A stretch of 64,000 bases of DNA from an uncultured Candidatus Saccharibacteria bacterium (GCA_964478595.1 CAYZIN010000003.1:1357-65356), one strand, 5' to 3'; shown: positions 8,601 through 60,722, numbered from the stretch's first letter. Notes: generated by a model from the sequence alone, not told the origin. Numbers and translations are program-made.

Positions 8601-9305
8601 AGGCCACCGTCGTTAACTCTGTTTGAGCTTAAAGAACGGGCCCGGCAAGCGGTTGGCGAAATGAAAAATAAGGGCGGGATTACCCCTGCGGAACGAGAGG
8701 TCATCGCTTCAAACCTAGGTCGGATTACTCAACGGATGAACCGGCGCAACGTCACGCAATCGGATCTTTACAGCCTATTTTCAATTTTCACAAAATTGCA
8801 TCAGACCGAACCGGACTTAGTGCCAAGAGACGATTTAGAGTCGATCAACGCTTCGATTTTGGCGGCCGATGGAAAGCTGGGCAGTCAAAAAGATGAGGGT
8901 TGGGAGATAGGCGAGTCAGCGCCGACGGTTCACCCCTCGCCCAAACCCTTCGAGGTTACCGCCAAGCCGGTCTCGCCATCAGTCGATACCGACGCCCCTC
9001 CCAAGACGCCAGGCTATTTAAGCCGTGAAAATTTCCTCAACCGGGCCGAAGAGCGTGGTCGAATTCCAGTTGATGTTGATGCCTCACCCGAAGCCGCTCC
9101 ACCCACAGATGTTGATGCAACTCCTGCTTCGCCGGAGGAAGAGCCTGAAGTTAAAACCGGCCCGGCGATTTGGCGCAATAACGACGCCGACCTGCCGGTT
9201 GAAGTTGAGGGTTTCGCTGGAACGCGTGACGGGCGAGCGTACGTCAATGTCCTCGGTAGTGCCACGGCATTGCCACTTGATGAAATTGTCTACCCCGAGG
9301 GTTAG
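5679..9305 (+). CDS. Giant (1208 aa) membrane-anchored protein with coiled-coil N-region, two tandem 125-aa repeats and an acidic Pro-rich C-terminus
   Basis: The reading frame is long and uninterrupted. Hydrophobic helices lie around aa 265-310 and 490. There is an internal tandem repeat (PxSLxLFELKERAR...GWEIGESA) and a DVDASPEAAPPTDVDATP C-terminal tail. Confidence 0.7.
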   Translation: MSGEGISPDAGGEVTGAFSSPDLATPAPDAPHRNPEPGTVIHPNGLEVHLVGADANARARDEADRRVDSEVAEKGLLTRIWKGNLAKDYYSMKYEREERAKIEAAGTPFLNEEEATKTIERFASEAESMVDTEAGESKVELSELPGGNELKDQFKALIREVAEKDMSRPAFEQEKTRLINEVASKNPELAKAGLQYADNIEKIAEQVEARVEAGEVLDNLLAETKIYLDRARAGVRTEAQYGAIDRVFEKIRSHGLSAVANEGVLATAISVGYTAARWSGRRAVAVVGKMAIPGISSGILAGMRENKFMKDERRRHNREMAEGMQTTEAASRRRIELENVRYETASSKDLVDALNSSLFETDPEGKRVERDLGGDELVDAMHLVAEIDARRQLSNRMRIDLITFSDKTTVEQERFELYKSVSEAKTILAKQFEAGDDTFKAETLGDSTFADALASLRYIEVSNLGIHIEQQDRAFDHLRRVEVAKAAAKGVLIGATIGLIAQEATSFLRADQTGLLEHALHHGGNSERAHQTLLLSIFGRHEVGHLSAHDALPGGKGEVQMPKGVSLTHDANGSFSLHDGGKEIAHGLKFNNGQMDPGTKAALTHAGYVIQSEHVQSGTEAVMRTPDQLIAHHSGDFKTVNRQLWYDNNTPQFDRNELGLGWAGTNGLDANGNYIYSVAHMTVGGSTHAGLSANAQQLVSEGRMKLLISASRETQNRALELPVRADGTVLIAKDSLAGRAFFQNSGCHAVFTGKFAEVAQTTSSSNGVDNFRILATEVGPGQPRFVDLNPKDLFITRIQLPPTIDVPPIIPIFGREALGEAEAPEDQNAKTIEIPAVKIEETQPEKEAPEKPLSLFELKERARVAVGELKNSSVITPAEREVIAANIGRITQNMQRREVTQSDLASLSAMFINLNQKAPEQMPGNLLPHYVQSLLAVDNQLARQKEVGWEIGESARTVYPAAKPFETGEADERPRPPSLTLFELKERARQAVGEMKNKGGITPAEREVIASNLGRITQRMNRRNVTQSDLYSLFSIFTKLHQTEPDLVPRDDLESINASILAADGKLGSQKDEGWEIGESAPTVHPSPKPFEVTAKPVSPSVDTDAPPKTPGYLSRENFLNRAEERGRIPVDVDASPEAAPPTDVDATPASPEEEPEVKTGPAIWRNNDADLPVEVEGFAGTRDGRAYVNVLGSATALPLDEIVYPEG
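8232..8960 (+). repeat. Two tandem copies of a repeat of about 375 bp (125 aa) inside the giant gene
   Basis: Copy 1 begins PLSLFELKERARVAVGELKNSSVITPAEREVIAANIGRITQNMQRREVTQSDL. Copy 2 begins PSLTLFELKERARQAVGEMKNKGGITPAEREVIASNLGRITQRMNRRNVTQSDL. Both end in GWEIGESA. Confidence 0.8.
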
Positions 9306-9307
9306 TT

Positions 9308-10348
9308 GTGCCTGAGAAACAGGGACCAGCCGGCCAAGAACACGAATTTCACTCTAGCCTGACTGAGCTGGATATTGCCGAAACGATCGAGCGGATTCCT
9401 GACCAGGAACAAGCTAAAGCTATTGCCTTAAATACTCATACGGCGCTAGAACGTTTTAAAAAAGCCTGCCAGGAATCAGAGCCAGACTGGGCCAATTATC
9501 GCTGCGCGAATTATGACGCCAAATTGCTACCGAGCCTAACGACTTTATACGGTATTAAAGAAGCTGACATTGGTTCGTTGGGCCAGCATATCTACGGCGA
9601 ATTCACGAAGTTTGGCGAACACATGGATCGGCGGAAACAGGCTTTGCCGGCCACGGAGGGGATCGTTAAGCGAATTGAAGGTCAATATCCCTGGTTTTAC
9701 GTGGGTGTCAATGAGGTAGAACGGGTCCGAAGAGGTCTTCGGGAGCGCAATATTGGTCGAATCTACGTTAATCCGCAGCCCCAGAACGTGCCGCGGGTGT
9801 TTGCTGAAATAGTTAATCTTGGAGCAAAAACGCAGATTCCCTTTGAGCTAAAGGCGCGCGGAGTTATGCATTCGGGTTTAAATGAAATTTCCAAAAAATC
9901 GTATGAACGAAAAAACGGCGAGAGAACTATTTTGGCCCGCGACAGAATTGTGGTTTATTTCGACAATCGAGACGAGTCTGGGATGTTAAAAATAATAGAA
10001 GAGCTTGCTGGTTTGCACGGCAAAGAGATGTCTAACGATCGGCCAGATTTTACGATGCCTTTAGGAATTAAAGCTAACGGCCAAAAGGTTCCCGGATTTA
10101 GTTTTGGTGAAGAGCCGAATAAACGCGAAAAAGGTCGGACGGGCTCGTTCTCGAGCCGGCGGGAAGAAATCCTTAGCCTCATCGAACTCGGGGCTCAAAA
10201 GGCTGGACGGCGGGTTTACGAACCTAGTTTTAATATAGACGCTGCGTTCAATCAGGTTGCAAGGCGCGAAGGAATTGATCCAGATAATCCGGCATTTAAC
10301 TTGGGTAGCACTAATTTTCCAGAGATTCGAAAACTCGGTTTTAGGTAG
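9308..10348 (+). CDS. Hypothetical 346-aa protein translationally coupled to the giant protein
   Basis: A GTG start lies 3 nt after the giant-gene stop. No family was recognised. Conserved-looking blocks include RIYVNPQPQN and RIVVYFDNRDESGMLKIIEELAGLHG. Confidence 0.55.
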   Translation: MPEKQGPAGQEHEFHSSLTELDIAETIERIPDQEQAKAIALNTHTALERFKKACQESEPDWANYRCANYDAKLLPSLTTLYGIKEADIGSLGQHIYGEFTKFGEHMDRRKQALPATEGIVKRIEGQYPWFYVGVNEVERVRRGLRERNIGRIYVNPQPQNVPRVFAEIVNLGAKTQIPFELKARGVMHSGLNEISKKSYERKNGERTILARDRIVVYFDNRDESGMLKIIEELAGLHGKEMSNDRPDFTMPLGIKANGQKVPGFSFGEEPNKREKGRTGSFSSRREEILSLIELGAQKAGRRVYEPSFNIDAAFNQVARREGIDPDNPAFNLGSTNFPEIRKLGFR

Positions 10349-18108: not shown

Positions 18109-18220
18109 ATTGTACTATTGAGCACACTTTTTTGAACAACAAAAATAACGAAAAATAAGCATTTGCATTATGAAAAGTAATGTTGTAAATTATTCACAGA
18201 TAGAGAGGAGGGGTGCGAGC

Positions 18221-18511
18221 GTGATATTAGATCTGTTTATTACGTCAAAAACACGGCGCAAAATCGTTGCTGTTTACACCAAACACCCCGATTTCCGGAT
18301 TCACGTCCGCGGTTTGGCCAAGATGATTAAAGAGGACCCGGGTAATGTGCAGCGGGAACTAAGTCGGTTGGAAAAAGCCGGTTTTGTAACTAGCTCGCGC
18401 GACGGCAACTCCAAAGTCTACGGTGCCAACCAGAGCTTCTATCTATTCAGAGACCTACAGAGCATGGTCCTGAAGGCGTCGCAAATGCAAGGGAGAGGCG
18501 CCAAAGCATAA
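18221..18511 (+). CDS. Winged-helix transcriptional regulator (ArsR/MarR-like fold)
   Basis: A GTG start is preceded by a GAGGAGGGG RBS. The ORF-track ATG at 18170 lies inside a candidate -35 (TTGCAT-17-TAAATT). The protein contains an HTH/wing-like stretch (VRGLAKMIKEDPGNVQRELSRLEKAGFV). Confidence 0.5.
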   Translation: MILDLFITSKTRRKIVAVYTKHPDFRIHVRGLAKMIKEDPGNVQRELSRLEKAGFVTSSRDGNSKVYGANQSFYLFRDLQSMVLKASQMQGRGAKA

Positions 18512-18746
18512 GTTCGGGTTCCGAAAATAATAAAAAACTAAAAGAAAGGTCCAAACAAAAATGTTCGCCAAAATGTTCAAAAAGCACAATATCAAAGTTA
18601 TGGGAGAATCGAGTATTTATAGGCCGACGATTCGCGTCAGCCAGCCACAGCGGCCGGTCAACTTCATTGCAAGAAGTGAACCGGTTTTTGCGTATCAGGA
18701 GCGAGCTCGCTAAAAAGTACGTTTTTTCTGTGGAAGAATAGCAAAA

Positions 18747-18765
18747 GCCCCCGCCTAACGGGGGC
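18747..18765. terminator. Intrinsic terminator hairpin downstream of the minus-strand GH1 gene
   Basis: The stem-loop is gcccccg-cctaa-cgggggc. A T-run follows on the minus strand. Confidence 0.6.
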
Positions 18766-18804
18766 CCTTGCTTTCCTTGTCGGGAAAGTGGTCCCTAGCG
18801 GGGG

Positions 18805-20139
18805 CTAGATCGCGTTGTTTGCGATGATTCTGGCGTAGGACCAGGCGCTGGGCCTGATCGTCCGTTCAAGCGAATTGCGATCCACATGGATTAGGCCAAA
18901 TTCTGGCCAGAATCCCTTATCCCATTCGAAGTTATCGAGAAGGGACCAGTGGAAATATCCGCGCAGGTCGACGCCGTCTTGAATCGCCTTCAGGCACCAT
19001 TGCAGCGACTCGCGGAGGTAACGTTCGCGGTGAACGTCCCGGAAATCGGCCAGGCCGTGTTCCGTGATAATCACCGGCTTCCCGCGTGTCGCTTTGTGAT
19101 TCCGAAGTTGGATCAGCACTCGGTACAACCCTTCGGGGTACAACTCCCAGCCCAGGTCCGACCGCCACGCGTCCGGCTTTTGGCCGGCGAATGGCTGGCT
19201 CAGTTTGTAAACCTGGTGCATATAGTAATTCAGTCCGACAAAGTCTTGCCGATCCGAGGTTGCGCGGTGGAACGCCCACATACTGTGGTCCACAAACGCC
19301 TTGATGCCTTTGCTGATCGGATCACGGGCTGAGTCGTTGCAGCTTAGGTTGACCGCCGAGCTAACGACTGCGCCGGGCACGAGTTCGTGAATGATCTCGT
19401 AACTCCGGCGGTGGCACTCAACCAAGTTCCGGCTTACCTTGCGGAAGTTCCGGTAGCTGCCATTCTGCGGCGGCCACGGCGGAGTACCGATCGCGAACTT
19501 CGGGCCGTAGCTGAGCAGGGAGTAAACCTCTGGCTCATTCAGAACCAGCCAGTAGGTAACTCCCTCGCCCGCCAATGCCTGAACGGTGGTCCGTACATAC
19601 TCCTCGAACCGCCGCGCGGCGTTGTCGCCGAGCCAGGCGCCTTCCTGCTCAAACCAGAGCGGGTGACACCAGTGCCAGAGGCAAACGACCGGCTCGATAC
19701 CGCGAGCCTTGCACGCCCGGATGACCCTGCGATAATGCTCGATCTCGTCGGGCTCGATTAGGCCCGACACCGGCTCGATTCGCGACCATTCGATCGAGAA
19801 GCGGTAGGCCTTGAGACCCAGTTGCTTCGCGAGATCGAGATCGTCTTCGAACCGCTGGTAGTGCTCGCAGGCTCCCAAGGAGAGATAGTTGCCCGGGTCC
19901 TTGGCTTGCCGTTTGATCATAGGCCAGATCTCGGGCGGAACGCCACGGCCGTTGCCGTAGTCTTTGTTCTCGTCCGCGTCGTCTGCCAGTTGGTAGTTCT
20001 TCTCGAACTCATAAGCCGACCATTGATCGTTGCTGCCGCCCTCGACCTGATGGCCCGAGGTTGAAGCGCCCCAGAGGAAACCTTTGGTGAAACCGCCGGT
20101 GACCGGCTGCATTGCGAATCCTTTCGCTCGTAGGAACAA
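18805..20139 (-). CDS. Glycoside hydrolase family 1 beta-glucosidase
   Basis: It has the N-terminal FLWGASTSGHQVEGG motif, LVLNEP (acid/base) and ITEHG (nucleophile, a variant of ITENG). GC is markedly higher than in neighbouring genes. Confidence 0.85.
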   Translation of the reverse strand: MFLRAKGFAMQPVTGGFTKGFLWGASTSGHQVEGGSNDQWSAYEFEKNYQLADDADENKDYGNGRGVPPEIWPMIKRQAKDPGNYLSLGACEHYQRFEDDLDLAKQLGLKAYRFSIEWSRIEPVSGLIEPDEIEHYRRVIRACKARGIEPVVCLWHWCHPLWFEQEGAWLGDNAARRFEEYVRTTVQALAGEGVTYWLVLNEPEVYSLLSYGPKFAIGTPPWPPQNGSYRNFRKVSRNLVECHRRSYEIIHELVPGAVVSSAVNLSCNDSARDPISKGIKAFVDHSMWAFHRATSDRQDFVGLNYYMHQVYKLSQPFAGQKPDAWRSDLGWELYPEGLYRVLIQLRNHKATRGKPVIITEHGLADFRDVHRERYLRESLQWCLKAIQDGVDLRGYFHWSLLDNFEWDKGFWPEFGLIHVDRNSLERTIRPSAWSYARIIANNAI

Positions 20140-20247
20140 TCAAGGCTTCCCGGAACAGCCGGAAAGCCGAAATAGGGCGTAATTATACCTTAAGCGGCTT
20201 GGTTTGTCAATCTGTTGGGAGGAGGCCGGGAATTATGCTAATCTGGG

Positions 20248-21525
20248 TTGCAGATGAGCTCGAAGTACCAAAGCGTGAGGGGGATGAACGATATTTTGCC
20301 TGGGGAGCAGGCAAAATTTGATCTGGTTTCGGCCACCTTCGAGAGTCTAGTTAACGCAGCCGGCTACGGCAAAATTGCCACCCCTATGCTAGAAGCCGCC
20401 GAATTATTCCATCGGACCGTTGGTGAAGAAACTGACATCATCTCGAAAGAGTTATACGAGTTTGAGGATAAATCGGGGAACAAAGTGGCTTTACGGCCCG
20501 AATCCACCGCTCCGGTAATGAGGGCATATCTGGAGCATGGGATGGGAAGCCTCCCTAAGCCGGTTAAGCTCTATTATATTGGGCCGATGTTTCGCTACGA
20601 ACGCCCACAGGCTGGCCGCAATCGACAACATTACCAGGTTGGCATTGAAGCGATTGGATATGACGCGCCGAGCCTGGACGCTCAGGTGATTATGTTGGCA
20701 CTACGGTTTTACCGACGTTTGGGCGTTGCCGGGGTTAGCCTTCAGATTAACAGCGTTGGAGATGAAAATTGCCGGCCAAAATACATCAAAACGTTGACCG
20801 AGTATCTGGAAGGCCACCGCAAGCAGCTGTGTGAAAATTGTAATAATCGACTAAAAACCAATCCGTTGAGGGTCTTAGACTGCAAGGATGAAGGTTGCCA
20901 GAAGATTCTAGACGGCGCGCCGCAAATGCTTAATTCGCTGTGCAAAGCTTGTCACGCTCACTTCAGGGGAGTTTTGGAGTATCTGGACGAGCTAAACGTA
21001 CCCTATGAGCTAAATCATCGCTTGGTGAGAGGGTTAGATTACTACAACCGCACCGTATTCGAGTTCTACGGGGCTCGCGAGGGGGCCCAAAGTAGCATTG
21101 GGGCGGGTGGCCGCTACGATGGGCTAGCTGAGCAGCTAGGAGGGCCGAAAACGCCCGGAATTGGCTTTGGGATAGGTATAGAAAGAGTTCTTCTGGAGCT
21201 TGAGGGTTCAGGAGCGGAACTGCCCGAAGCCGACCCACCCCAGGTTTATGTGGCATCGTTAGGGGAACCGGCCAGGATCGATGCCTTCAGGTTAATTGAA
21301 CAGCTTTTAGATAACGATATTTCGGCCGTTGGATCGGTCGAAAAAGATGGAATTGCCTCGCAACTCTCGAAAGCGAATAAGACCAAGGCCCCTTACGCAG
21401 TAATCATTGGCCAGAAGGAGGTTTTTGATAAGGTGGTGATAATTCGAGATATGAAAAACGGTGCCCAGGAGAGCGTTCCCAGAGCCAAAGTCCTATCTGA
21501 AATACAGGCTCGCCTCGATAGATAA
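20248..21525 (+). CDS. hisS: Histidyl-tRNA synthetase
   Basis: It shows class II aaRS motifs, an HisRS-type GAGGRYDGL motif and a C-terminal anticodon-binding domain. Confidence 0.9.
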   Translation: MQMSSKYQSVRGMNDILPGEQAKFDLVSATFESLVNAAGYGKIATPMLEAAELFHRTVGEETDIISKELYEFEDKSGNKVALRPESTAPVMRAYLEHGMGSLPKPVKLYYIGPMFRYERPQAGRNRQHYQVGIEAIGYDAPSLDAQVIMLALRFYRRLGVAGVSLQINSVGDENCRPKYIKTLTEYLEGHRKQLCENCNNRLKTNPLRVLDCKDEGCQKILDGAPQMLNSLCKACHAHFRGVLEYLDELNVPYELNHRLVRGLDYYNRTVFEFYGAREGAQSSIGAGGRYDGLAEQLGGPKTPGIGFGIGIERVLLELEGSGAELPEADPPQVYVASLGEPARIDAFRLIEQLLDNDISAVGSVEKDGIASQLSKANKTKAPYAVIIGQKEVFDKVVIIRDMKNGAQESVPRAKVLSEIQARLDR

Positions 21526-21564
21526 AGAGACCCCCGCAGGGGTCCCTTCTGGGACGTACGAGGG

Positions 21565-21900
21565 TCAAAACTGGCGGCCCGGTGGGCCAACCAGGAAAAC
21601 CAGTTTCTGATCTGGTGTGATCTGGATATAGAGTGTTGTGTCGTCTGGCGTTCTGATGTTGGTCTCGATCGTGTTTGGGCGGAGCTTGAACATCGGCATG
21701 AACCTGGCTACATCGCTCATCTGTACCCCAAACCACTCGGTTAGAACTTCCAGTAGTTTCATCCCGTCGCCGTGTCTCCATTCGATCGACTCATAAAGAC
21801 CTAGGTCGCTAGGAGTAAGGGCTGTCAACTCGTCGTGAAGTTGCGAGATCAAGATAGCTGATTCGACCAGCTCGGTGAGTTCTTGCTTGTCAACGGGCAC
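21565..21900 (-). CDS. Hypothetical protein (GC-rich island)
   Basis: The start is GTG with an AAGGAG RBS. No family was recognised. Confidence 0.4.
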   Translation of the reverse strand: MPVDKQELTELVESAILISQLHDELTALTPSDLGLYESIEWRHGDGMKLLEVLTEWFGVQMSDVARFMPMFKLRPNTIETNIRTPDDTTLYIQITPDQKLVFLVGPPGRQF

Positions 21901-21952
21901 AAATACTCCTTTTCTCGAAGGCCAGAGGATTATACCTGAAATATAAGATACG

Positions 21953-21973
21953 AAAAAGCCCCCGAGAGGGGGC
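21953..21973 (-). terminator. Intrinsic terminator after the Rpf-like gene
   Basis: The hairpin is gccccc-gaga-gggggc, followed by T5 on the minus strand. Confidence 0.65.
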
Positions 21974-21986
21974 TAATTCGTTAGGG

Positions 21987-22553
21987 TTAGATCAACCCTA
22001 GTTTGCGAGCACAAGCAGGCCATGGGTACCAACCGCGAGCGGCTTGGGTAGCCTGGGCTTTGGCGTCCTGCACGGCAGGAGGAGCCTGGTCGGCGGTGGC
22101 ATAACCACCGTAACCACCCCAAGTACCGTAGTCGAACTGGTAGGCACCGTAAAAGCCGTTACCCGAGTTACGGGTATAGTCGCCGCCAGCCTCACAGAAG
22201 CGAAGCTGGGCCCAAACGTCGCCAGTATTGACGACAATCGGGGTTTTACGGGCAGTCTGGGCAGCCAAAGCGGCGGCCCGAGCAGCCTGTTCAGCGGCGG
22301 CTTTTTCGGCAGCTTGTTCCGCGCGCAAAGGCTTAACGACATCGTTTTCGAAGTCGGGTGCCTTGGTGTCGACGTGGAACGGGTCGGCCTGCTTAATGTC
22401 AAAGTTTATTTTCGGGACAGTAACTTGCTGATCGGCCTGAGCCTGAGCCGGCGTCACAGCGCTGATGGCTACCGGGACGGCAGCCAGGGGCGAGATCCCT
22501 GTCGGGTTGGCGAACGAAAGAATCGTTGCACCAACGGCTAGGAAACTACGCAT
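21987..22553 (-). CDS. Secreted Rpf-like (resuscitation-promoting factor) transglycosylase-like domain protein
   Basis: It has a signal peptide, an Ala/Gln-rich linker and a C-terminal WAQLRFCEAGGDYTRNSGNGFYGAYQFDYGTWGGYGG...GWYPWPAC block. That block matches the Rpf/transglycosylase-like domain consensus (W..L..CESGG...NTGNGYYGGLQF..TW...GG). The gene is GC-rich. Confidence 0.7.
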   Translation of the reverse strand: MRSFLAVGATILSFANPTGISPLAAVPVAISAVTPAQAQADQQVTVPKINFDIKQADPFHVDTKAPDFENDVVKPLRAEQAAEKAAAEQAARAAALAAQTARKTPIVVNTGDVWAQLRFCEAGGDYTRNSGNGFYGAYQFDYGTWGGYGGYATADQAPPAVQDAKAQATQAARGWYPWPACARKLGLI

Positions 22554-22740
22554 TGTGAAAGATTCTCTCCTTCACCCTCTCGACATCTCTCTGGGCGGTT
22601 TTTGGGCCCACCCGTTTAAGTGAGAGAGGCAACAAAAAAGACCTGCCAGATGACAGACCTTCTAGTTACAAGGAGGTATTCTAGCAGCATAAGCACTATT
22701 TGTCAACCCCTAAAAGTAAAAAACCACTCCTGTTGGATGA

Positions 22741-22769
22741 TTGACAAAGCTGTCAGAACGGCTTAGAAT
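22741..22769 (+). promoter_or_regulatory. Consensus sigma70 promoter TTGACA-17-TAGAAT
   Basis: The -35 TTGACA is at 22741-22746. A 17-nt spacer follows, then TAGAAT at 22764-22769. Confidence 0.6.
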
Positions 22770-22797
22770 GTCGCAATCCCCGAGCGAAGGAGGAGGT

Positions 22798-23022
22798 ATG
22801 CAGTCTCCCCAGGAGCTGGAGGCCCAGCGCCTGTCGCAGTCTCGACACCCAACCAACGGCCCGCTGATGAGGCTTGTTTCACCACCCCACCCGTTGATGT
22901 TCGATCCGCTGCTCGATCTCTCCGAGGAGGAATCGCAGCCGATCTCGCGTCAGCTAGACGAAGCGCATCGTTTGGCGGGGCCGGCTAGTGGTGGCTGGAG
23001 GTGGTGGCTACGGGAAAGGTAA
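22798..23022 (+). CDS. Small hypothetical protein (74 aa), first of a three-ORF cassette
   Basis: A strong GAAGGAGGAGG RBS precedes an ATG at 22798. The ORF-track start at 22741 would sit on the promoter. The C-terminus is Trp-rich (GGWRWWLRER). Confidence 0.4.
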   Translation: MQSPQELEAQRLSQSRHPTNGPLMRLVSPPHPLMFDPLLDLSEEESQPISRQLDEAHRLAGPASGGWRWWLRER

Positions 23023-23234
23023 TCAAGCACCCTCGGCGGCGTCACCCTGCAGCCAACCGGCTGACAGAGCGGGAGATCGAGCTTCTTAGCGAAAAGGAGC
23101 TAAAGGATCGACTGGCTCGGCATCTTCGATCCAGCGGCGTCGAAGAGCACGAGATTCAGATTGTCCTGGGTTCGGGCAAGGAATATTGCCAGGGCGTTCT
23201 GAAATCGATCATTCGTAAAGCGTCCGACGACTAG
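23001..23234 (+). CDS. Small basic hypothetical protein (77 aa)
   Basis: It starts at a GTG overlapping the preceding ORF. The protein is helical and Leu/Arg-rich (LTEREIELLSEKELKDRLARHL). Confidence 0.35.
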   Translation: MVATGKVIKHPRRRHPAANRLTEREIELLSEKELKDRLARHLRSSGVEEHEIQIVLGSGKEYCQGVLKSIIRKASDD

Positions 23235-23244
23235 GAGGGCAGGA

Positions 23245-23427
23245 TTGGCCAGGCCAGTTGACCTGACGAAGTTCTCGGAGCAGGACATCGCGCGGTTGAA
23301 CCGCAAAACGATGCTTAAGATGCTCCACAGCCTCGGGCAGCGGCGCAGTCTGCAGCGGCCTATCAAGCATCTTCGCCGCGACATCATGTTTCATCGCAGC
23401 CAACAGATAAACGGCAACGGCGCATAG
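23245..23427 (+). CDS. Small basic hypothetical protein (60 aa)
   Basis: The start is TTG with an AGGAGG RBS 6 nt upstream. Confidence 0.35.
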   Translation: MARPVDLTKFSEQDIARLNRKTMLKMLHSLGQRRSLQRPIKHLRRDIMFHRSQQINGNGA

Positions 23428-23497
23428 CGCCAATAGCATTAAAGGGTCCGTCGGGAAACCGGCGGGCCCTGAAGTTTTTTGTGGGATAATTTCTGAT

Positions 23498-23836
23498 ATG
23501 GAAGATTGCTTATTTTGTAAAATCGCTAACCACCAGAAGGAGTCGCTCATCTGGGAAAACGACGATATTGCCGCGTTTTACGACCTTCATCCTCGGGCAC
23601 CGGTGCACGTTTTGATTGTGCCGAAACGGCATATTGAGCGGCTCTCTATGCTCGAGGATGAGAGGCTGGCAGGCAAGTTGTTGATGGCGGTTAAAGATGT
23701 GGCTAAGAAGCTGGACTTGGGGCCGTTCTATCGAGTAGGCATTGTCGGAAAAGATGTTCCTCACTTGCATATTCATCTGCTGGGTAAGGAAACGACCGAT
23801 GTAGCTCCAGAGGGCCCGCTGCCTGAGGGGCTGTGA
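23498..23836 (+). CDS. HIT family protein (histidine triad nucleotide-binding)
   Basis: It carries the HLHIHLLG histidine triad. Confidence 0.8.
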   Translation: MEDCLFCKIANHQKESLIWENDDIAAFYDLHPRAPVHVLIVPKRHIERLSMLEDERLAGKLLMAVKDVAKKLDLGPFYRVGIVGKDVPHLHIHLLGKETTDVAPEGPLPEGL

Positions 23837-29373: not shown

Positions 29374-29829
29374 ATTAAGTGTCACGAATGTGACTATCTA
29401 GACTCCAAGGTTATCGAATCGCGGGATGCCGACGGATTGTCGATTCGCCGCCGCCGCCAGTGTTTACGCTGCGGCTTTCGATTTACCACCTACGAACGAG
29501 CAGAGTCAGCCAAACTATCGGTCGTTAAAAAAGATGGGCGACGGGAATTATTTGATCGCGAAAAAGTGTCGGGCGGAATTTATCGGGCTTGTGAGAAACG
29601 GCCGGTGGCAGTGGCTTTAATTGAAGAAGTTGTCGACCAAATCGAGCGGGATTTGAGGGCAAGGGGGGAGGCTGAAATCGTTTCCAGCGAAATCGGTGAG
29701 CTTGTGATGCAAAAATTAATAACGCTAGATGACGTGGCTTACGTTCGATTTGCCAGTGTGTATCGCAGTTTTGCCGACTTGGCCAGTTTTGAGGCGGAGG
29801 TTGCGCGGCTTAAAAACCGGCCGGCTTGA
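29374..29829 (+). CDS. nrdR: Transcriptional repressor NrdR, apparently initiating at a non-canonical ATT codon
   Basis: The conserved N-terminal zinc ribbon (KCHEC ... RRRRQCLRCGFRFTTYE) and the ATP-cone lie in one frame. The first CxxC at 29380 is upstream of every ATG/GTG/TTG. An in-frame stop is at 29341. ATT at 29374 is preceded by an AGGGGG RBS with a 6-nt spacing, giving M-K-C-H-E-C like canonical NrdR. Confidence 0.75.
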   Translation: MKCHECDYLDSKVIESRDADGLSIRRRRQCLRCGFRFTTYERAESAKLSVVKKDGRRELFDREKVSGGIYRACEKRPVAVALIEEVVDQIERDLRARGEAEIVSSEIGELVMQKLITLDDVAYVRFASVYRSFADLASFEAEVARLKNRPA

Positions 29830-29911: not shown

Positions 29912-30000
29912 TTATTTCTTCGAACTGTCTGGGGGGCGGAGCATCTGTGAGGGTGCAGTTGCTTCGCTGCCTGGACGGTCTACGAAAGAAAGGAACGCAA

Positions 30001-32754
30001 GTGACAGTTACGGAAATCAAGCCGTACGAAGAGCTGAAGGCTCGATTGGCGGAGGAGTTCGAGTTGGAGAAGGCGCGCAAGCCTTCATTCACCGAGAACT
30101 CGCGTACTACCTTCGACCTTCGATACTCAGTGAAGAACGAGGCCGGCGAACTGTCGGAGGATCCCCGCGAGGCGATCTGGCGGGTAAACTCCAACGTCTC
30201 CAGCATCACCCCGCTTTACTCGGGCTACCAAGGAACGACGGAGCCGGCGGAGGTTGATCGCGACACGGTGCCGTTCCCGCTGAAGCAGGCAGTTCGTCAG
30301 TACAACTGGTTGCTGAAGCAGGATCGGGTGCATTGCTCGTTCGAGGAACTGATGACCCACGGGGTCGACCAGTGGATCGAGCGGGCTCATACGTACCAGG
30401 AGATGGCGACGAGTTGGGACCACGTGTTCAATTCGCCGACTTGGACCGGAGCGGGGACTGGCCTGATGCAGTTGGCCGCTTGTTTCGTCCTGCCGATCTC
30501 CGACGACCTCGGCCGCGGCCGCTCGAGCATCTTCGAGACGCTCAAGGTGGCGGCGCTGATCCAGCAGACCGGCGGGGGCAATGGCTTCTCCTTCTCGGCG
30601 CTGCGCCCCAGCGGATCGCTGGTCCGGCGCAGCATGGGCAAGGCGACTGGGCCGATGGGCTTCCTCGAGGTCTACAACGCGGCCTTCGGCGTGATCGCTC
30701 AGGGTGGTTCGCGCCGGGGTGCCAACATGGGTGTGCTGCGAGTCAGCCACCCGGACATCCGGCCGTTCATCCAGTCGAAGGTTGTCGAGGGAGAGATCGG
30801 CAACTTCAACCTGAGCGTGGCGATCGAAGACGCGTTCATGGACGCCGTCGAACGCGACGGCGACTGGGTCTTGCAGTGGAAGCTCAACTCGCCGACGGAC
30901 GATCCGGTTGACTACCAGTTGACCGAGACCATCCGGGCGCGGGAGCTCTACGACGAGATCGTCAAGAACGCTTGGGTGATCGGAGACCCCGGCAACCTGT
31001 TCATCGATCGAGCCAACCGGGACAACCCGGTGCCGAAGCTCTACGTTCTGGAAGCCACCAATCCCTGCGGGGAACAGTGGCTGCCGCCGTATTCGAACTG
31101 CTGCCTCGGCTCGATCGCGGTCGTCAACTTCGTCGAATGGGACGAAGCGCGCGGTTGTTACGTCATGAACTGGGAGCGGCTGCGTCAAACGATCGTCCTG
31201 GCAACCGAAGCGCTCGACGACGTCATCGACGCCAACGCCTACGTTCCGGAAGTTCCGGAGCTGGAGGCGGCGGCGCAGGGCGAGCGGCGAATCGGGTTGG
31301 GCCAGATGGGCCAAGCGGATGCCATGATCAAACTCGGCATTCGTTACGGCGCTGCGGACGGTCTCGACTTCGCCAGCCAGCTGACGGAGTTCGTGCGTTA
31401 CCACAGCATGCTGACGTCGATTCGGCGGGCCAAAGAGCGCGGACCGTTCGAGTGGATCGAAGATTCGATCTACGATCCGAAGTTGCTGCGTGAACTCGGT
31501 CCCGGGGCGGAGATCTCAGGCGAAATGACCGATGGCAGCGGGCGGATGTACTCGTCGCGGCTATGGCAGCCGCCAACGCCGCTGGTCAAACACGAACGCG
31601 ACTTCGGCCGGCCGGACTGCGACTGGATCGTCGTGACCGAAGGCATCATGGAGCACGGCATCCGCAACGCCTGTCAGCTGACCATCGCCCCGACCGGCAC
31701 CATTGGTACTGTGTCGGCGATGGAGGGCTACGGCTGCGAACCGCTGTTCGCGCTGATCTACGAGCGGACGGTGATGCAGGAAGGCAAGGACATCAAGCTC
31801 TACTACCTGTCACCGCTGTTCGTTGAGGCTCTGCAGCGCGCCGGTATCGACGACGCGACGCAGAAGAAGATCCTGGACAAGGTCAAGGAAACGGGGTCGT
31901 GCCAGGGGATCGAAGAGGTGCCGGCCGAGATCCAGAATGTGTTCGTGGTGTCGGCCGATGTGACCGGCGATGAGCACGTTTGGACGCAGGCTGTCATCCA
32001 GCGGTTCGTCGACAACTCGATTTCCAAGACCATCAACCTCCCCAAAGAGGCGACGGTTGAGGACGTGTCGGCTGCCTACAAGCTGGCTTACCAGCTCGGT
32101 TGCAAGGGCATCACGGTTTACCGGCAGGGTAGTCGGGAACGTGAGGTTCTGGCAACGGGCAAGGGCGACCAGACGATCGATCCGGATCACTGGCCGTTCA
32201 TCGAGCCGATGCCGCTGCCCGGCTACGTCGAGACGGTGGGTCTACCGACGCGGACACTGCGGATGCCGACGCCGTTCGGTAAGCTTCACGGGTATCTGAC
32301 GGAGCTGGTCGAACACCCGGGGCGTCCGTTTGACACACGGCTGCAGTTCGGTAAGGCCGGCAACGACAAGGCGGCCGACATCGAAGCCATCGGTCGGTTG
32401 ATCTCGCTGTGCTTCCGGGCGGGAATCAACGTCAAGGATGTGGTTGACCAGCTCGAAGGCATTGGCGGTCAGAGTCAAATCGGGTTCCGCGACCGGAAGG
32501 TGCGGTCTTCGCCCGACGCGATCGCCAAGACCTTGAAGCGGCTTTACATGCCTGAAGAGTGGGCAGCCGACTACGCTCTTGACACCCCAACCAACGGCTC
32601 AGCGCCCACGGTTGTGGCGGAGCCGGCGGCTGTGAGCAAGCCGCGCGGTGATTTGTGCCCGGAGTGCAAGAACTACTCGGTAGTTCACATTCAGGGTTGC
32701 AAGTACTGCAAGCGGGAGCTGGGGGGCTGCGGCAAGCAGCTCAACTGCGACTAG
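30001..32754 (+). CDS. nrdJ: Class II (adenosylcobalamin-dependent) ribonucleotide reductase with C-terminal zinc ribbon
   Basis: It has the TNPCGEQWL active-site motif and class II-like domains. The C-terminus is CPECKN...[19 protein letters not shown] is about 63%. The start is proposed as GTG 30001 with an AAAGGA RBS. The ORF-track GTG at 29947 is also possible. Confidence 0.9.
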
Positions 32755-60120: not shown

Positions 60121-60156
60121 CTTTAATTCCAACAGGTAGCATTTGGGCTTTGTCTC

Positions 60157-60185
60157 TTGACAAAGTCCTTATGTTTTTGTATACT
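60157..60185 (+). promoter_or_regulatory. Consensus promoter TTGACA-17-TATACT (extended signature CTCTTGACAAA...G-TATACTTGCGCG)
   Basis: The hexamers are perfect with optimal spacing. The same extended signature recurs at 63931. Confidence 0.6.
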
Positions 60186-60229
60186 TGCGCGGTCTTTTGA
60201 CAGCCAAATACTTGTTGAAAGGAGCGGGC

Positions 60230-60478
60230 ATGGGACCTTTACGCATAATCGGCCTCGGCCTCGGAAGTACCGTCTTGTACTTTTTCCTGAAGTTCTGCAC
60301 GATCGGCACGCCAGTTGCGATCTTCTTCGCGGTCGGAGCGTTTGTCGTCGGTCTGATTCTCTACAATGAGAATCCCAGTTGGTCAGGACCTCGCCGGCTC
60401 GAAGAAGACGTCGAGCGCGAGAAGCGCCGCAGGCTGGAACACCCGGAGGACTTCTATCCTCCGTCGACACTCCCGTAG
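60230..60478 (+). CDS. Small two-TM membrane protein (82 aa), GC-rich cassette
   Basis: An AAAGGAG RBS precedes the ATG at 60230. The protein has two hydrophobic helices and a charged C-tail. Confidence 0.4.
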   Translation: MGPLRIIGLGLGSTVLYFFLKFCTIGTPVAIFFAVGAFVVGLILYNENPSWSGPRRLEEDVEREKRRRLEHPEDFYPPSTLP

Positions 60479-60497
60479 CCAACCGAAAGGAGCAAGC

Positions 60498-60722
60498 ATG
60501 TGCAATAGTTGCGGTGCCGAAGGGTACTCGAGTGGTCACTCGAACCACAGAGCCGGTTGTCCAAGTGACTGGGGCTTCGTAGGGACCGACAATGGTCGGC
60601 AAGTTCGAGCCTTCCACGAAGGCCAAGCCGACGCCCAAGCCGGTCGCCCGGAACTGCCGTCCGACTCGCTCTCGTCCACTTCGTACCGTCTGGGCTTCCG
60701 ACGCAGGAAGTCCGGCCACTAG
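60498..60722 (+). CDS. Small Cys-containing hypothetical protein (74 aa)
   Basis: An AAAGGAG RBS precedes the ATG at 60498. It has a CNSCG...GCPSDWG motif. Confidence 0.35.
   Translation: MCNSCGAEGYSSGHSNHRAGCPSDWGFVGTDNGRQVRAFHEGQADAQAGRPELPSDSLSSTSYRLGFRRRKSGH

Follow-up and report, generated by a model that had tools for sequence, protein, structure and literature searches.

Between positions 18700 and 23430 of a 64,000-nucleotide stretch of DNA from an uncultured Candidatus Saccharibacteria bacterium (GCA_964478595.1, CAYZIN010000003.1:1357-65356; hereafter, the window), a gene for a glycoside hydrolase of family 1 (GH1), the histidyl-tRNA synthetase gene hisS, a short gene starting with GTG, a gene for an Rpf-like enzyme and several small open reading frames (ORFs) form a block richer in G + C than its surroundings. 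The question raised by this locus is whether the block came from a high-GC donor, possibly an actinobacterial host, as the initial annotation had suggested, or whether its genes have separate histories. We consider it probable that the block is a core Saccharibacteria chromosome with three small lineage-specific pieces that were exchanged or inserted. The locus would then reflect ordinary gene flux, on a small scale, within a reduced genome.

The block was compared with three relatives: L001, a metagenome-assembled genome (MAG) named ‘uncultured Candidatus Saccharibacteria’ (21 kb covered); L005, a 2.3-kb contig from a different sample; and L013 (~2 kb covered), the closest relative for the Rpf-like gene. 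In the preferred explanation, the core would consist of a regulator gene, a small ORF, hisS, the Rpf-family enzyme gene, an ORF termed orfA and a HIT-family gene. The first piece would be a slot upstream of hisS, where a conserved, strong divergent promoter would drive different cargo among sister genomes (a cytoplasmic GH1 in the window and L005, a membrane-protein gene in L001), the adjacent relA/spoT gene having been deleted beside it in the lineage of the window. The second would be a cassette of ~430 bp, inserted at the terminator shared by hisS and the Rpf-like gene, in which an ORFan of 111 amino acids is equipped with a promoter, a ribosome-binding site and a terminator of its own. The third would be a stretch after orfA that was replaced relative to the closest relative.

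Base composition of the block and its genes

The window has a G + C content (GC) of 0.513, or 0.504 with the block and one other gene excluded, the latter being the backbone value. The span 18700-23430 has a GC of 0.554, a value reached by none of the backbone windows of equal length, and the excess is uneven across it. For each gene, an expected GC was calculated from its own amino acids with backbone codon frequencies; GC at third codon positions (GC3) was set against the mean of 56 ORFs (0.559, standard deviation 0.061). The GH1 gene exceeds its expected GC by 0.073 (0.593 observed, 0.521 expected), the Rpf-like gene by 0.014 (0.598 and 0.584), while hisS lies at its expected value (0.510 and 0.513, -0.003). 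The corresponding values are 0.523 and 0.493 for the 111-amino-acid ORF, 0.635 and 0.593 for orfA, 0.567 and 0.517 for orfB and 0.583 and 0.501 for orfC; the codon-level excess of the last three (+0.04 to +0.08) is smaller and noisier than that of GH1, and these genes are short. GH1 is the only gene of the block with a clear codon-level excess. Its synonymous-site composition is atypical, that of orfA, orfB and orfC is weakly so, and that of the Rpf-like and 111-amino-acid genes is not.

The GC3 of GH1 is 0.746-0.752 (z ≈ 3; the upper value applies to the form starting at the ATG), is uniform along the gene (0.64-0.82) and steps down sharply at the gene borders. Its tetranucleotide distance (z = 2.2) is the highest in the window apart from windows of a reductase gene described below, whereas the area of the Rpf-like gene and small ORFs gives a z of 1.2. 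The 111-amino-acid ORF and its cassette have a GC of 0.51-0.52, with 45% of backbone windows as high, and the GC3 of the ORF is 0.625 (z = 1.1). In the Rpf-like gene the GC (~0.594-0.598) resides at codon positions 1 and 2 (0.66 and 0.52), with a GC3 of 0.598 (z = 0.6) and a fraction of Ala, Gly, Pro and Arg in the protein of 0.40 (z = 3.3). This gene is GC-rich because its protein is rich in Ala, Gly and Pro, a property that extends to the whole family, as the Ala-rich linker occurs in all homologs in the alignment. The initial description of these genes as all markedly GC-richer therefore holds for the whole span and, at synonymous sites, for GH1; for the Rpf-like gene it holds in raw GC but not in GC3, and the short hypothetical gene is at backbone level. 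Raw GC is misleading at this locus, since the split into amino-acid and synonymous components separates the atypical GH1 gene from the core Rpf-like gene.

Expression level alone had been named as a possible source of the compositional difference. Expression-linked codon bias was rejected as the source of the GH1 GC3, because genes presumed to be highly expressed have GC3 values of only 0.47 (rpsU), 0.51 (ftsZ) and 0.55 (rpsB).

The slot upstream of hisS and its GH1 gene

The accessory segment in the slot (18742..20181, minus strand) comprises a terminator, the GH1 gene and its 5' leader; its GC is 0.592, and no backbone window of equal length attains this. Similarity between the window and L001 stops at ~18741 on the left and restarts on the right at position 20182, in the -10 box of a predicted sigma-70-type promoter (20182..20210, minus strand; TTGACA-17-TATAAT, 12/12 matches) that would drive the slot gene. 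This promoter is part of a block of divergent promoters that also serves hisS, and the block is conserved in L005, before GH1, and in L001, before a gene for a protein of 223 amino acids. The order in L001 is regulator, 50-amino-acid ORF, relA/spoT, terminator, 223-amino-acid gene (minus strand), divergent promoter block and hisS. In L005 it is relA C-terminus (2147-2287; 74% identical to the L001 RelA), terminator, GH1, the same promoter block and hisS, the GH1 of L005 being 70% identical to that of the window, in the same position and with a GC3 of 0.80. The L001 protein (9189-9860, minus strand) is Trp-rich, membrane-like and unrelated to GH1, its gene has a GC3 of 0.83, and no match was found for it in Pfam, NCBIfam or PHROG. 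GH1 and this gene are alternative occupants of one slot behind the same promoter.

The relA/spoT gene of L001 (6992-9145) encodes 717 amino acids with HD, RelA_SpoT, TGS and ACT domains. At this locus the window cleanly lacks it, and no copy turned up in the rest of the 64 kb; since both L001 and L005 retain relA beside the slot, the lineage of the window would have lost the gene here by deletion.

Two hairpins lie within the slot segment. The first, a G + C-rich hairpin with T-runs on both sides (18747..18765; GCCCCCGCCTAACGGGGGC), is located between the 50-amino-acid ORF and GH1 and is likely a bidirectional terminator for both. The second is a stem-loop with a 10-bp stem at the 5' terminus of the GH1 mRNA (20144..20168, minus strand; -23.5 kcal/mol, z = -2.5). 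In L005 the equivalent stem of 11 bp (~715-739) differs in sequence from that of the window with the pairing kept, and a stem-loop a few bases past the point where transcription of the slot gene is predicted to begin, with stems of 8-11 bp, is common to the window, L005 and L001 (~9882-9902 in the latter). It could be an mRNA-stabilising or regulatory hairpin. A scan for terminator-like hairpins gave 16 sites compared with 7.7 ± 2.5 in shuffled sequences, and hairpins were confirmed at 18747-18765, 20144-20168, 21527-21546, 21957-21974 and 23443-23470. The genes had been described as bracketed each by its own hairpin terminators; the hairpins are indeed present, but that at 20144-20168 is the GH1 leader stem-loop and not a terminator.

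The GH1 gene (18805..20112, minus strand; start ATG 20112) encodes 435 amino acids, the form annotated in an NCBI-derived collection. The protein matches PF00232 at 249.8 bits (cut-off 22.6) over a full (beta/alpha)8 domain, the match covering 96% of thousands of GH1 homologs. Both catalytic glutamates are kept and align with those of solved GH1 structures (LVLNEPEV, with the acid/base in NEP, and IITEHGLAD, with the nucleophile in TEHG). The protein lacks a signal peptide and is predicted to be cytoplasmic. Its score against the beta-glucosidase equivalog model of NCBIfam (TIGR03356, BGL) is 263.1 bits, below the cut-off of 478.5, so the sequence does not allow a substrate to be assigned. Its role is most likely cytoplasmic hydrolysis of beta-glycosides feeding sugar catabolism. 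The protein (P0254, 18808-20112) was filed under a 90%-identity cluster with a 54-amino-acid SecE as representative, and this clustering artefact is apparently why its self-match is missing from the homolog search.

Beyond L005, the closest GH1 homologs reach 49% and 46% identity, and behind them come many more at 43-46% (360-447 bits). Those that are named, at 43-46% identity, are all Patescibacteria (Parcubacteria, Yanofskybacteria, Sungbacteria and ‘Patescibacteria group’), whereas actinobacterial GH1s on large replicons (Clavibacter, Nonomuraea and Streptomyces) reach 32-34% and ~200-211 bits; the best solved GH1s score 226-252 bits. This distribution (43-49% against 32-34%) places the protein in a Patescibacteria-dominated subgroup. 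One homolog at 45% comes from a genome that also has a Saccharibacteria-type Rpf gene, and is found there at an unrelated locus with ordinary GC3. No actinobacterial donor is apparent for GH1 from these comparisons, and protein similarity suggests that the donor was probably another Patescibacterium. From the uniformly high GC3 and the sharp edges we infer a GC-richer donor as the source of the gene.

A second site in the window has a similar arrangement. The strongest compositional outlier of the window is a gene for a class II ribonucleotide reductase (29947-32754; GC3 0.81, tetranucleotide z 4-5), a B12-dependent, NrdJ-type enzyme with a TSCPD domain. It follows an nrdR of backbone-like composition (29374-29829), on its downstream side, and its identity to phage copies does not exceed 36%. 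In L001 (19554-21266), where ftsZ and nrdR stand in the same order, the next gene is a different one, GC3-rich (0.83) and cut off by the end of the locus. No similarity between this gene and the window reductase was detectable; from its position and sequence, we suspect that it encodes another reductase type. The gene after nrdR thus looks like an in-situ replacement, and a precedent for reductase transfer in Saccharibacteria has been described for NrdD (PMC7427843).

Several observations weigh against the acquisition of GH1 by exchange. Presence or absence in L001, L005 and L013 refers to this locus only, no GH1 beyond the window/L005 pair comes closer than 49% identity, and few of the top matches carry a taxon label. 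The occupant of the slot in L001 is also GC3-rich, which could mean a process linked to the position instead of a donor. Finally, high GC3 is kept in two GH1 lineages that differ by 30% in protein (nonsynonymous divergence, dN, 0.25; synonymous divergence, dS, ~1.0; for the adjacent hisS, dN is 0.13 and dS saturated), so it has persisted through substantial divergence, a pattern that a simple, recent transfer fits poorly. This persistence is compatible with a very GC-rich source and partial amelioration, with later spread between lineages or with a force that maintains GC3. Identity at four-fold sites was 0.51 for GH1 (n = 91) and, for the N-terminal part of hisS (n = 51), 0.33; with counts this small and affected by base composition, relative dating of GH1 by synonymous divergence was dropped.

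The same observations are the basis of the rival that survives best, namely that GH1 is an old resident of the clade that was lost in L001 and whose GC3 is kept high locally, by GC-biased gene conversion in a slot prone to recombination or by gene-specific selection on synonymous sites. It would account for a GC3 of 0.75-0.80 in both GH1 orthologs, and it is in line with the non-homologous slot gene of L001 (0.83), with somewhat raised GC3 values of 0.65-0.72 in the L001 genes around the slot, and with the non-homologous genes after nrdR (0.81-0.83 for the window reductase and the suspected L001 reductase). We nevertheless regard it as unlikely: the steps at the GH1 borders are sharp and the flanking hisS of the window is at backbone GC3, highly expressed genes are not GC3-rich, and GH1 homologs in other Patescibacteria are little elevated (L006, 0.60 against ~0.50) or not elevated (L008, L010). 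Exchange of GH1 from a GC-richer source is therefore preferred.

The Rpf-like gene and the other two pieces

The gene at 21987..22553 (minus strand) encodes an Rpf-family protein of 188 amino acids that is predicted to be secreted and muralytic. It matches PF06737 (Transglycosylas) at 62.6 bits (cut-off 27), and its domain matches the catalytic domain of Mycobacterium tuberculosis RpfB (1XSF, E = 1.8e-17). The protein has a hydrophobic, signal-like N-terminus ending in AQA, then a short stretch and a linker rich in Ala, Glu and Lys, and last a C-terminal Rpf domain of ~80 residues. Residues C120 and E121 of the motif CE(A/S)GG (CEAGG in the window) and C181, which align to RpfB, are invariant in 12 homologs from Saccharibacteria. 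A total of 831 homologs were found; the best 120 are 142-231 amino acids long and 44-80% identical (self excluded), many of them sit on contigs of 0.4-0.87 Mb, and those of them that are named are mostly Candidatus Saccharibacteria. Two NCBIfam equivalog models of actinobacterial Rpfs were not reached (NF046106, 55.5 bits against 180; NF046107, 44.1 against 200).

The position of the gene is kept in L001 (55% identity) and in L013 (80% amino-acid and 84.6% nucleotide identity), where it has the same promoter and terminator. The promoter (22706-22678, minus strand; TTGACA-17-TAGAAT with TG) is one half of a divergent pair at 22678..22769. The terminator (21957..21974, minus strand) consists of AGCCCCCTCTCGGGGGCT followed by TTTTT, and 21 nucleotides of this hairpin and T-run, from CCCTCTC onward, are the same in L013. 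By synteny and homology the gene appears to be core in Saccharibacteria and vertically inherited, not a recent import. Closest homologs within the same lineage had been named at the outset as an outcome that would refute acquisition, and for this gene they were observed. Its product is most likely a secreted peptidoglycan-cleaving enzyme of the Rpf (lysozyme-like) fold, in a distinct family of Saccharibacteria.

These results bear directly on the proposal that the whole block, including the Rpf-like gene, came from a high-GC actinobacterial host. In its favour, the entire span is GC-richer than the backbone, the solved relatives of the Rpf domain are all mycobacterial Rpf proteins, and cultivated Saccharibacteria grow on Actinobacteria (PMC7427843). 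Such an origin is nonetheless very improbable, as the Rpf-like gene is syntenic, has Saccharibacteria homologs as its closest relatives, owes its GC to its amino acids and scores below the equivalog cut-offs; GH1 is closer to Patescibacteria than to actinobacterial homologs; the hypothetical gene is not GC-rich; and each piece is an indel of its own, with its own junctions. What stands of the suggested high-GC acquisition is the compositionally foreign GH1, while its extension to the Rpf-like gene does not hold and the choice of an actinobacterial donor is not supported.

The preferred explanation can be extended, in a proposal that we consider rather unlikely: the Rpf enzyme would be a lineage-wide effector on host peptidoglycan, and Saccharibacteria would swap GC3-rich cargo behind resident promoters. 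The enzyme could open the wall of an actinobacterial host or mimic the host’s growth-stimulating Rpf signal, and its domain may stem from an ancient capture of a host Rpf. Cargo exchange may draw on a shared GC-rich gene pool, with GH1 versus a membrane protein at hisS and two reductases at nrdR, of which that of L001 is a suspected one. Lytic transglycosylases of Patescibacteria have been proposed in a review to compromise host envelopes (PMC11665869); the literature searched contained no paper on Rpf-type proteins in Saccharibacteria. This conserved Rpf-type enzyme, predicted to be secreted and muralytic, may plausibly take part in remodelling the wall where epibiont and host meet.

The second piece lies between the Rpf-like gene and hisS. 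The latter (20254..21525, plus strand; Pfam; GC3 0.545), whose start is likely ATG 20254, is a core gene, 87% identical to its counterpart in L001 and 83-85% to that in L005. Relative to L013, a single-gene insertion of ~430 bp (~21518..21949, minus strand; GC 0.509) follows it, consisting of a TATAAT -10 box (21934-21929), an AAAGGAG Shine-Dalgarno sequence, the GTG-start ORF of 111 amino acids (21565..21900, minus strand) and a hairpin terminator (21546-21527). The cassette supplies hisS with its last two codons and stop (...ARLDR* instead of ...ARLAP*). In L013, only a few bases separate the Rpf terminator (…CCCTCTCGGGGGCTTTTTCGT) from the hisS 3' end, as seen in the alignment and sequence, and L001 has an unrelated ORF of 122 amino acids at this position. 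The 111-amino-acid protein has no family match in Pfam or PHROG, matches only itself in 5.8 billion clusters and has one full-length relative (107 amino acids, 30% identical) among 1.84 billion representatives; this sole homolog being distant, no donor can be named. A single-sequence AlphaFold2 model reached a pLDDT of only 52.8 and was not used. The cassette thus appears to be a genuine insertion of a near-ORFan that is not GC-rich.

On the other side of the Rpf-like gene, the second promoter of the divergent pair (22741-22769, plus strand) precedes orfA (22798..23022, plus strand; ATG 22798), which encodes 74 amino acids behind a strong Shine-Dalgarno sequence (GAAGGAGGAGGT) and is annotated in the NCBI-derived collection. 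A gene for 79 amino acids at the equivalent position in L013 is 45% identical, and this conservation places orfA outside any recent insertion. The orfA promoter and leader (22741-22797; TTGACAAAGCTGTCA…GGCTTAGAAT.TCGCAATCC) are near-identical in L013, though the protein is only 45% identical. Because of the strong Shine-Dalgarno sequence and the protein conservation, a coding transcript is favoured over an RNA. A structured RNA in 22776-23480 was rejected, with no Rfam match at the gathering threshold in the whole window and none with E ≤ 1 in 22500-23600; no tRNA or tmRNA was found in the 64 kb.

The third piece is the stretch between orfA and the HIT gene (23023..23480, plus strand; GC 0.572), with two candidate ORFs on the plus strand (orfB, 23001-23234; orfC, 23245-23427) and a strong terminator with a 12-bp stem (23443-23470). 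These ~460 bp resemble neither their ~310-bp equivalent in L013 nor the L001 sequence. Neither orfB nor orfC is called in any source, and no Pfam or PHROG match was found for orfA, orfB or orfC. In L013, orfA and both promoters are kept, while the cassette, orfB and orfC are absent.

The mosaic character noted initially is borne out, as accessory pieces between conserved genes vary among close relatives. GH1 (in L001), the cassette and orfB/orfC are absent at the locus in sister genomes, whereas the Rpf-like gene is present in L001 and L013. That the GC-rich pieces are chimeric joins from assembly or binning is scarcely credible: the source is evidently a MAG contig, and such contigs can be chimeric, but the hisS-GH1 junction recurs in another sample (L005, 71% nucleotide identity), the hisS-cassette-Rpf junctions recur in two further runs, in independent assemblies (L018 and L019), and the junctions fall at promoters and terminators with genes left intact.

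Pfam searches also confirmed the placing of GH1, hisS and the Rpf-type Transglycosylas domain. In L001, gene order is kept on either side of the slot at 55-94% amino-acid identity, and this, with the 87% identity of hisS, agrees with the assignment of the window to Saccharibacteria. A search with hisS of metagenome contigs for more close relatives gave only distant loci, 39-55% identical and not syntenic. To the left of the slot, a core winged-helix (ArsR/MarR-like) regulator (18170..18511, plus strand; weak Pfam and NCBIfam helix-turn-helix matches) has an L001 ortholog with 87% identity. It is followed by a conserved ORF of 50 amino acids (MFAKMFKKHNIKVMGESSIYRPTIRVSQPQRPVNFIARSEPVFAYQERAR; 18561..18713, plus strand), the final conserved element before the left GH1 junction. 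This ORF (MFAK…VSQP…RPVNFIARSEPVF…) is also found in L001, between the helix-turn-helix gene and relA; its exact sequence is absent from the protein collection and it has no PHROG match. At the right end of the region is a core HIT-family hydrolase gene (23498..23836, plus strand; Pfam), 55% identical to its orthologs in L001 and L013. Genes for SecD and SecF lie upstream of the region, and rpsU and a YqeY-like gene after HIT. Elsewhere in the window, an ORF of 198 amino acids (60123-60719, minus strand) has a GC at second codon positions of 0.62, an Ala, Gly, Pro and Arg fraction of 0.38 and a low GC3 (0.50), and its GC looks protein-driven.

Comparison with known systems

The locus shows gene flux at a fine scale in a reduced epibiont genome, with promoter-fixed swaps of single genes, loss of relA/spoT and an ORFan cassette at a terminator. 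Exchange of cargo behind a conserved promoter, and the persistent GC3-richness of that cargo, are its notable features. As for mobility, no integrase or transposase domains were found among the ORFs of the region scanned with Pfam, no tRNA in the 64 kb, and repeats were short and at chance level. A phage origin was rejected, with no PHROG match for the 111-amino-acid protein, orfA, orfB, orfC, the 50-amino-acid protein or the L001 proteins of 122 and 223 amino acids.

The GH1 protein shares with GH1 beta-glucosidases of CAZy, such as Thermotoga maritima BglA (1OD0) and the Pyrococcus horikoshii enzyme (1VFF), a full-length PF00232 domain, the NEP motif, the nucleophile Glu and a length of ~435 amino acids. 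It differs from them in a nucleophile motif of TEHG instead of the usual TENG, in its Patescibacteria-dominated subgroup, in a score below the BGL cut-off and in a codon composition that is atypical for its own genome.

The Rpf-like protein has the catalytic domain of actinobacterial Rpfs (M. tuberculosis RpfB, RpfC and RpfE, and Micrococcus luteus Rpf), with ~45% identity to RpfB over ~85 residues, and shares with them the catalytic Glu in CEAGG, the disulfide cysteines and predicted secretion. Unlike these, the Saccharibacteria proteins have an architecture of ~185 amino acids that lacks G5, DUF348 and LysM modules.

Classical genomic islands and hot spots of the flexible genome resemble the locus in presence or absence at fixed positions and in atypical cargo composition, here that of GH1. 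The pieces in the window, however, are single genes of 0.4-1.4 kb without integrase, transposase, tRNA or flanking repeat, and at the slot, in contrast to classical islands, the cargo would be exchanged behind a conserved resident promoter.

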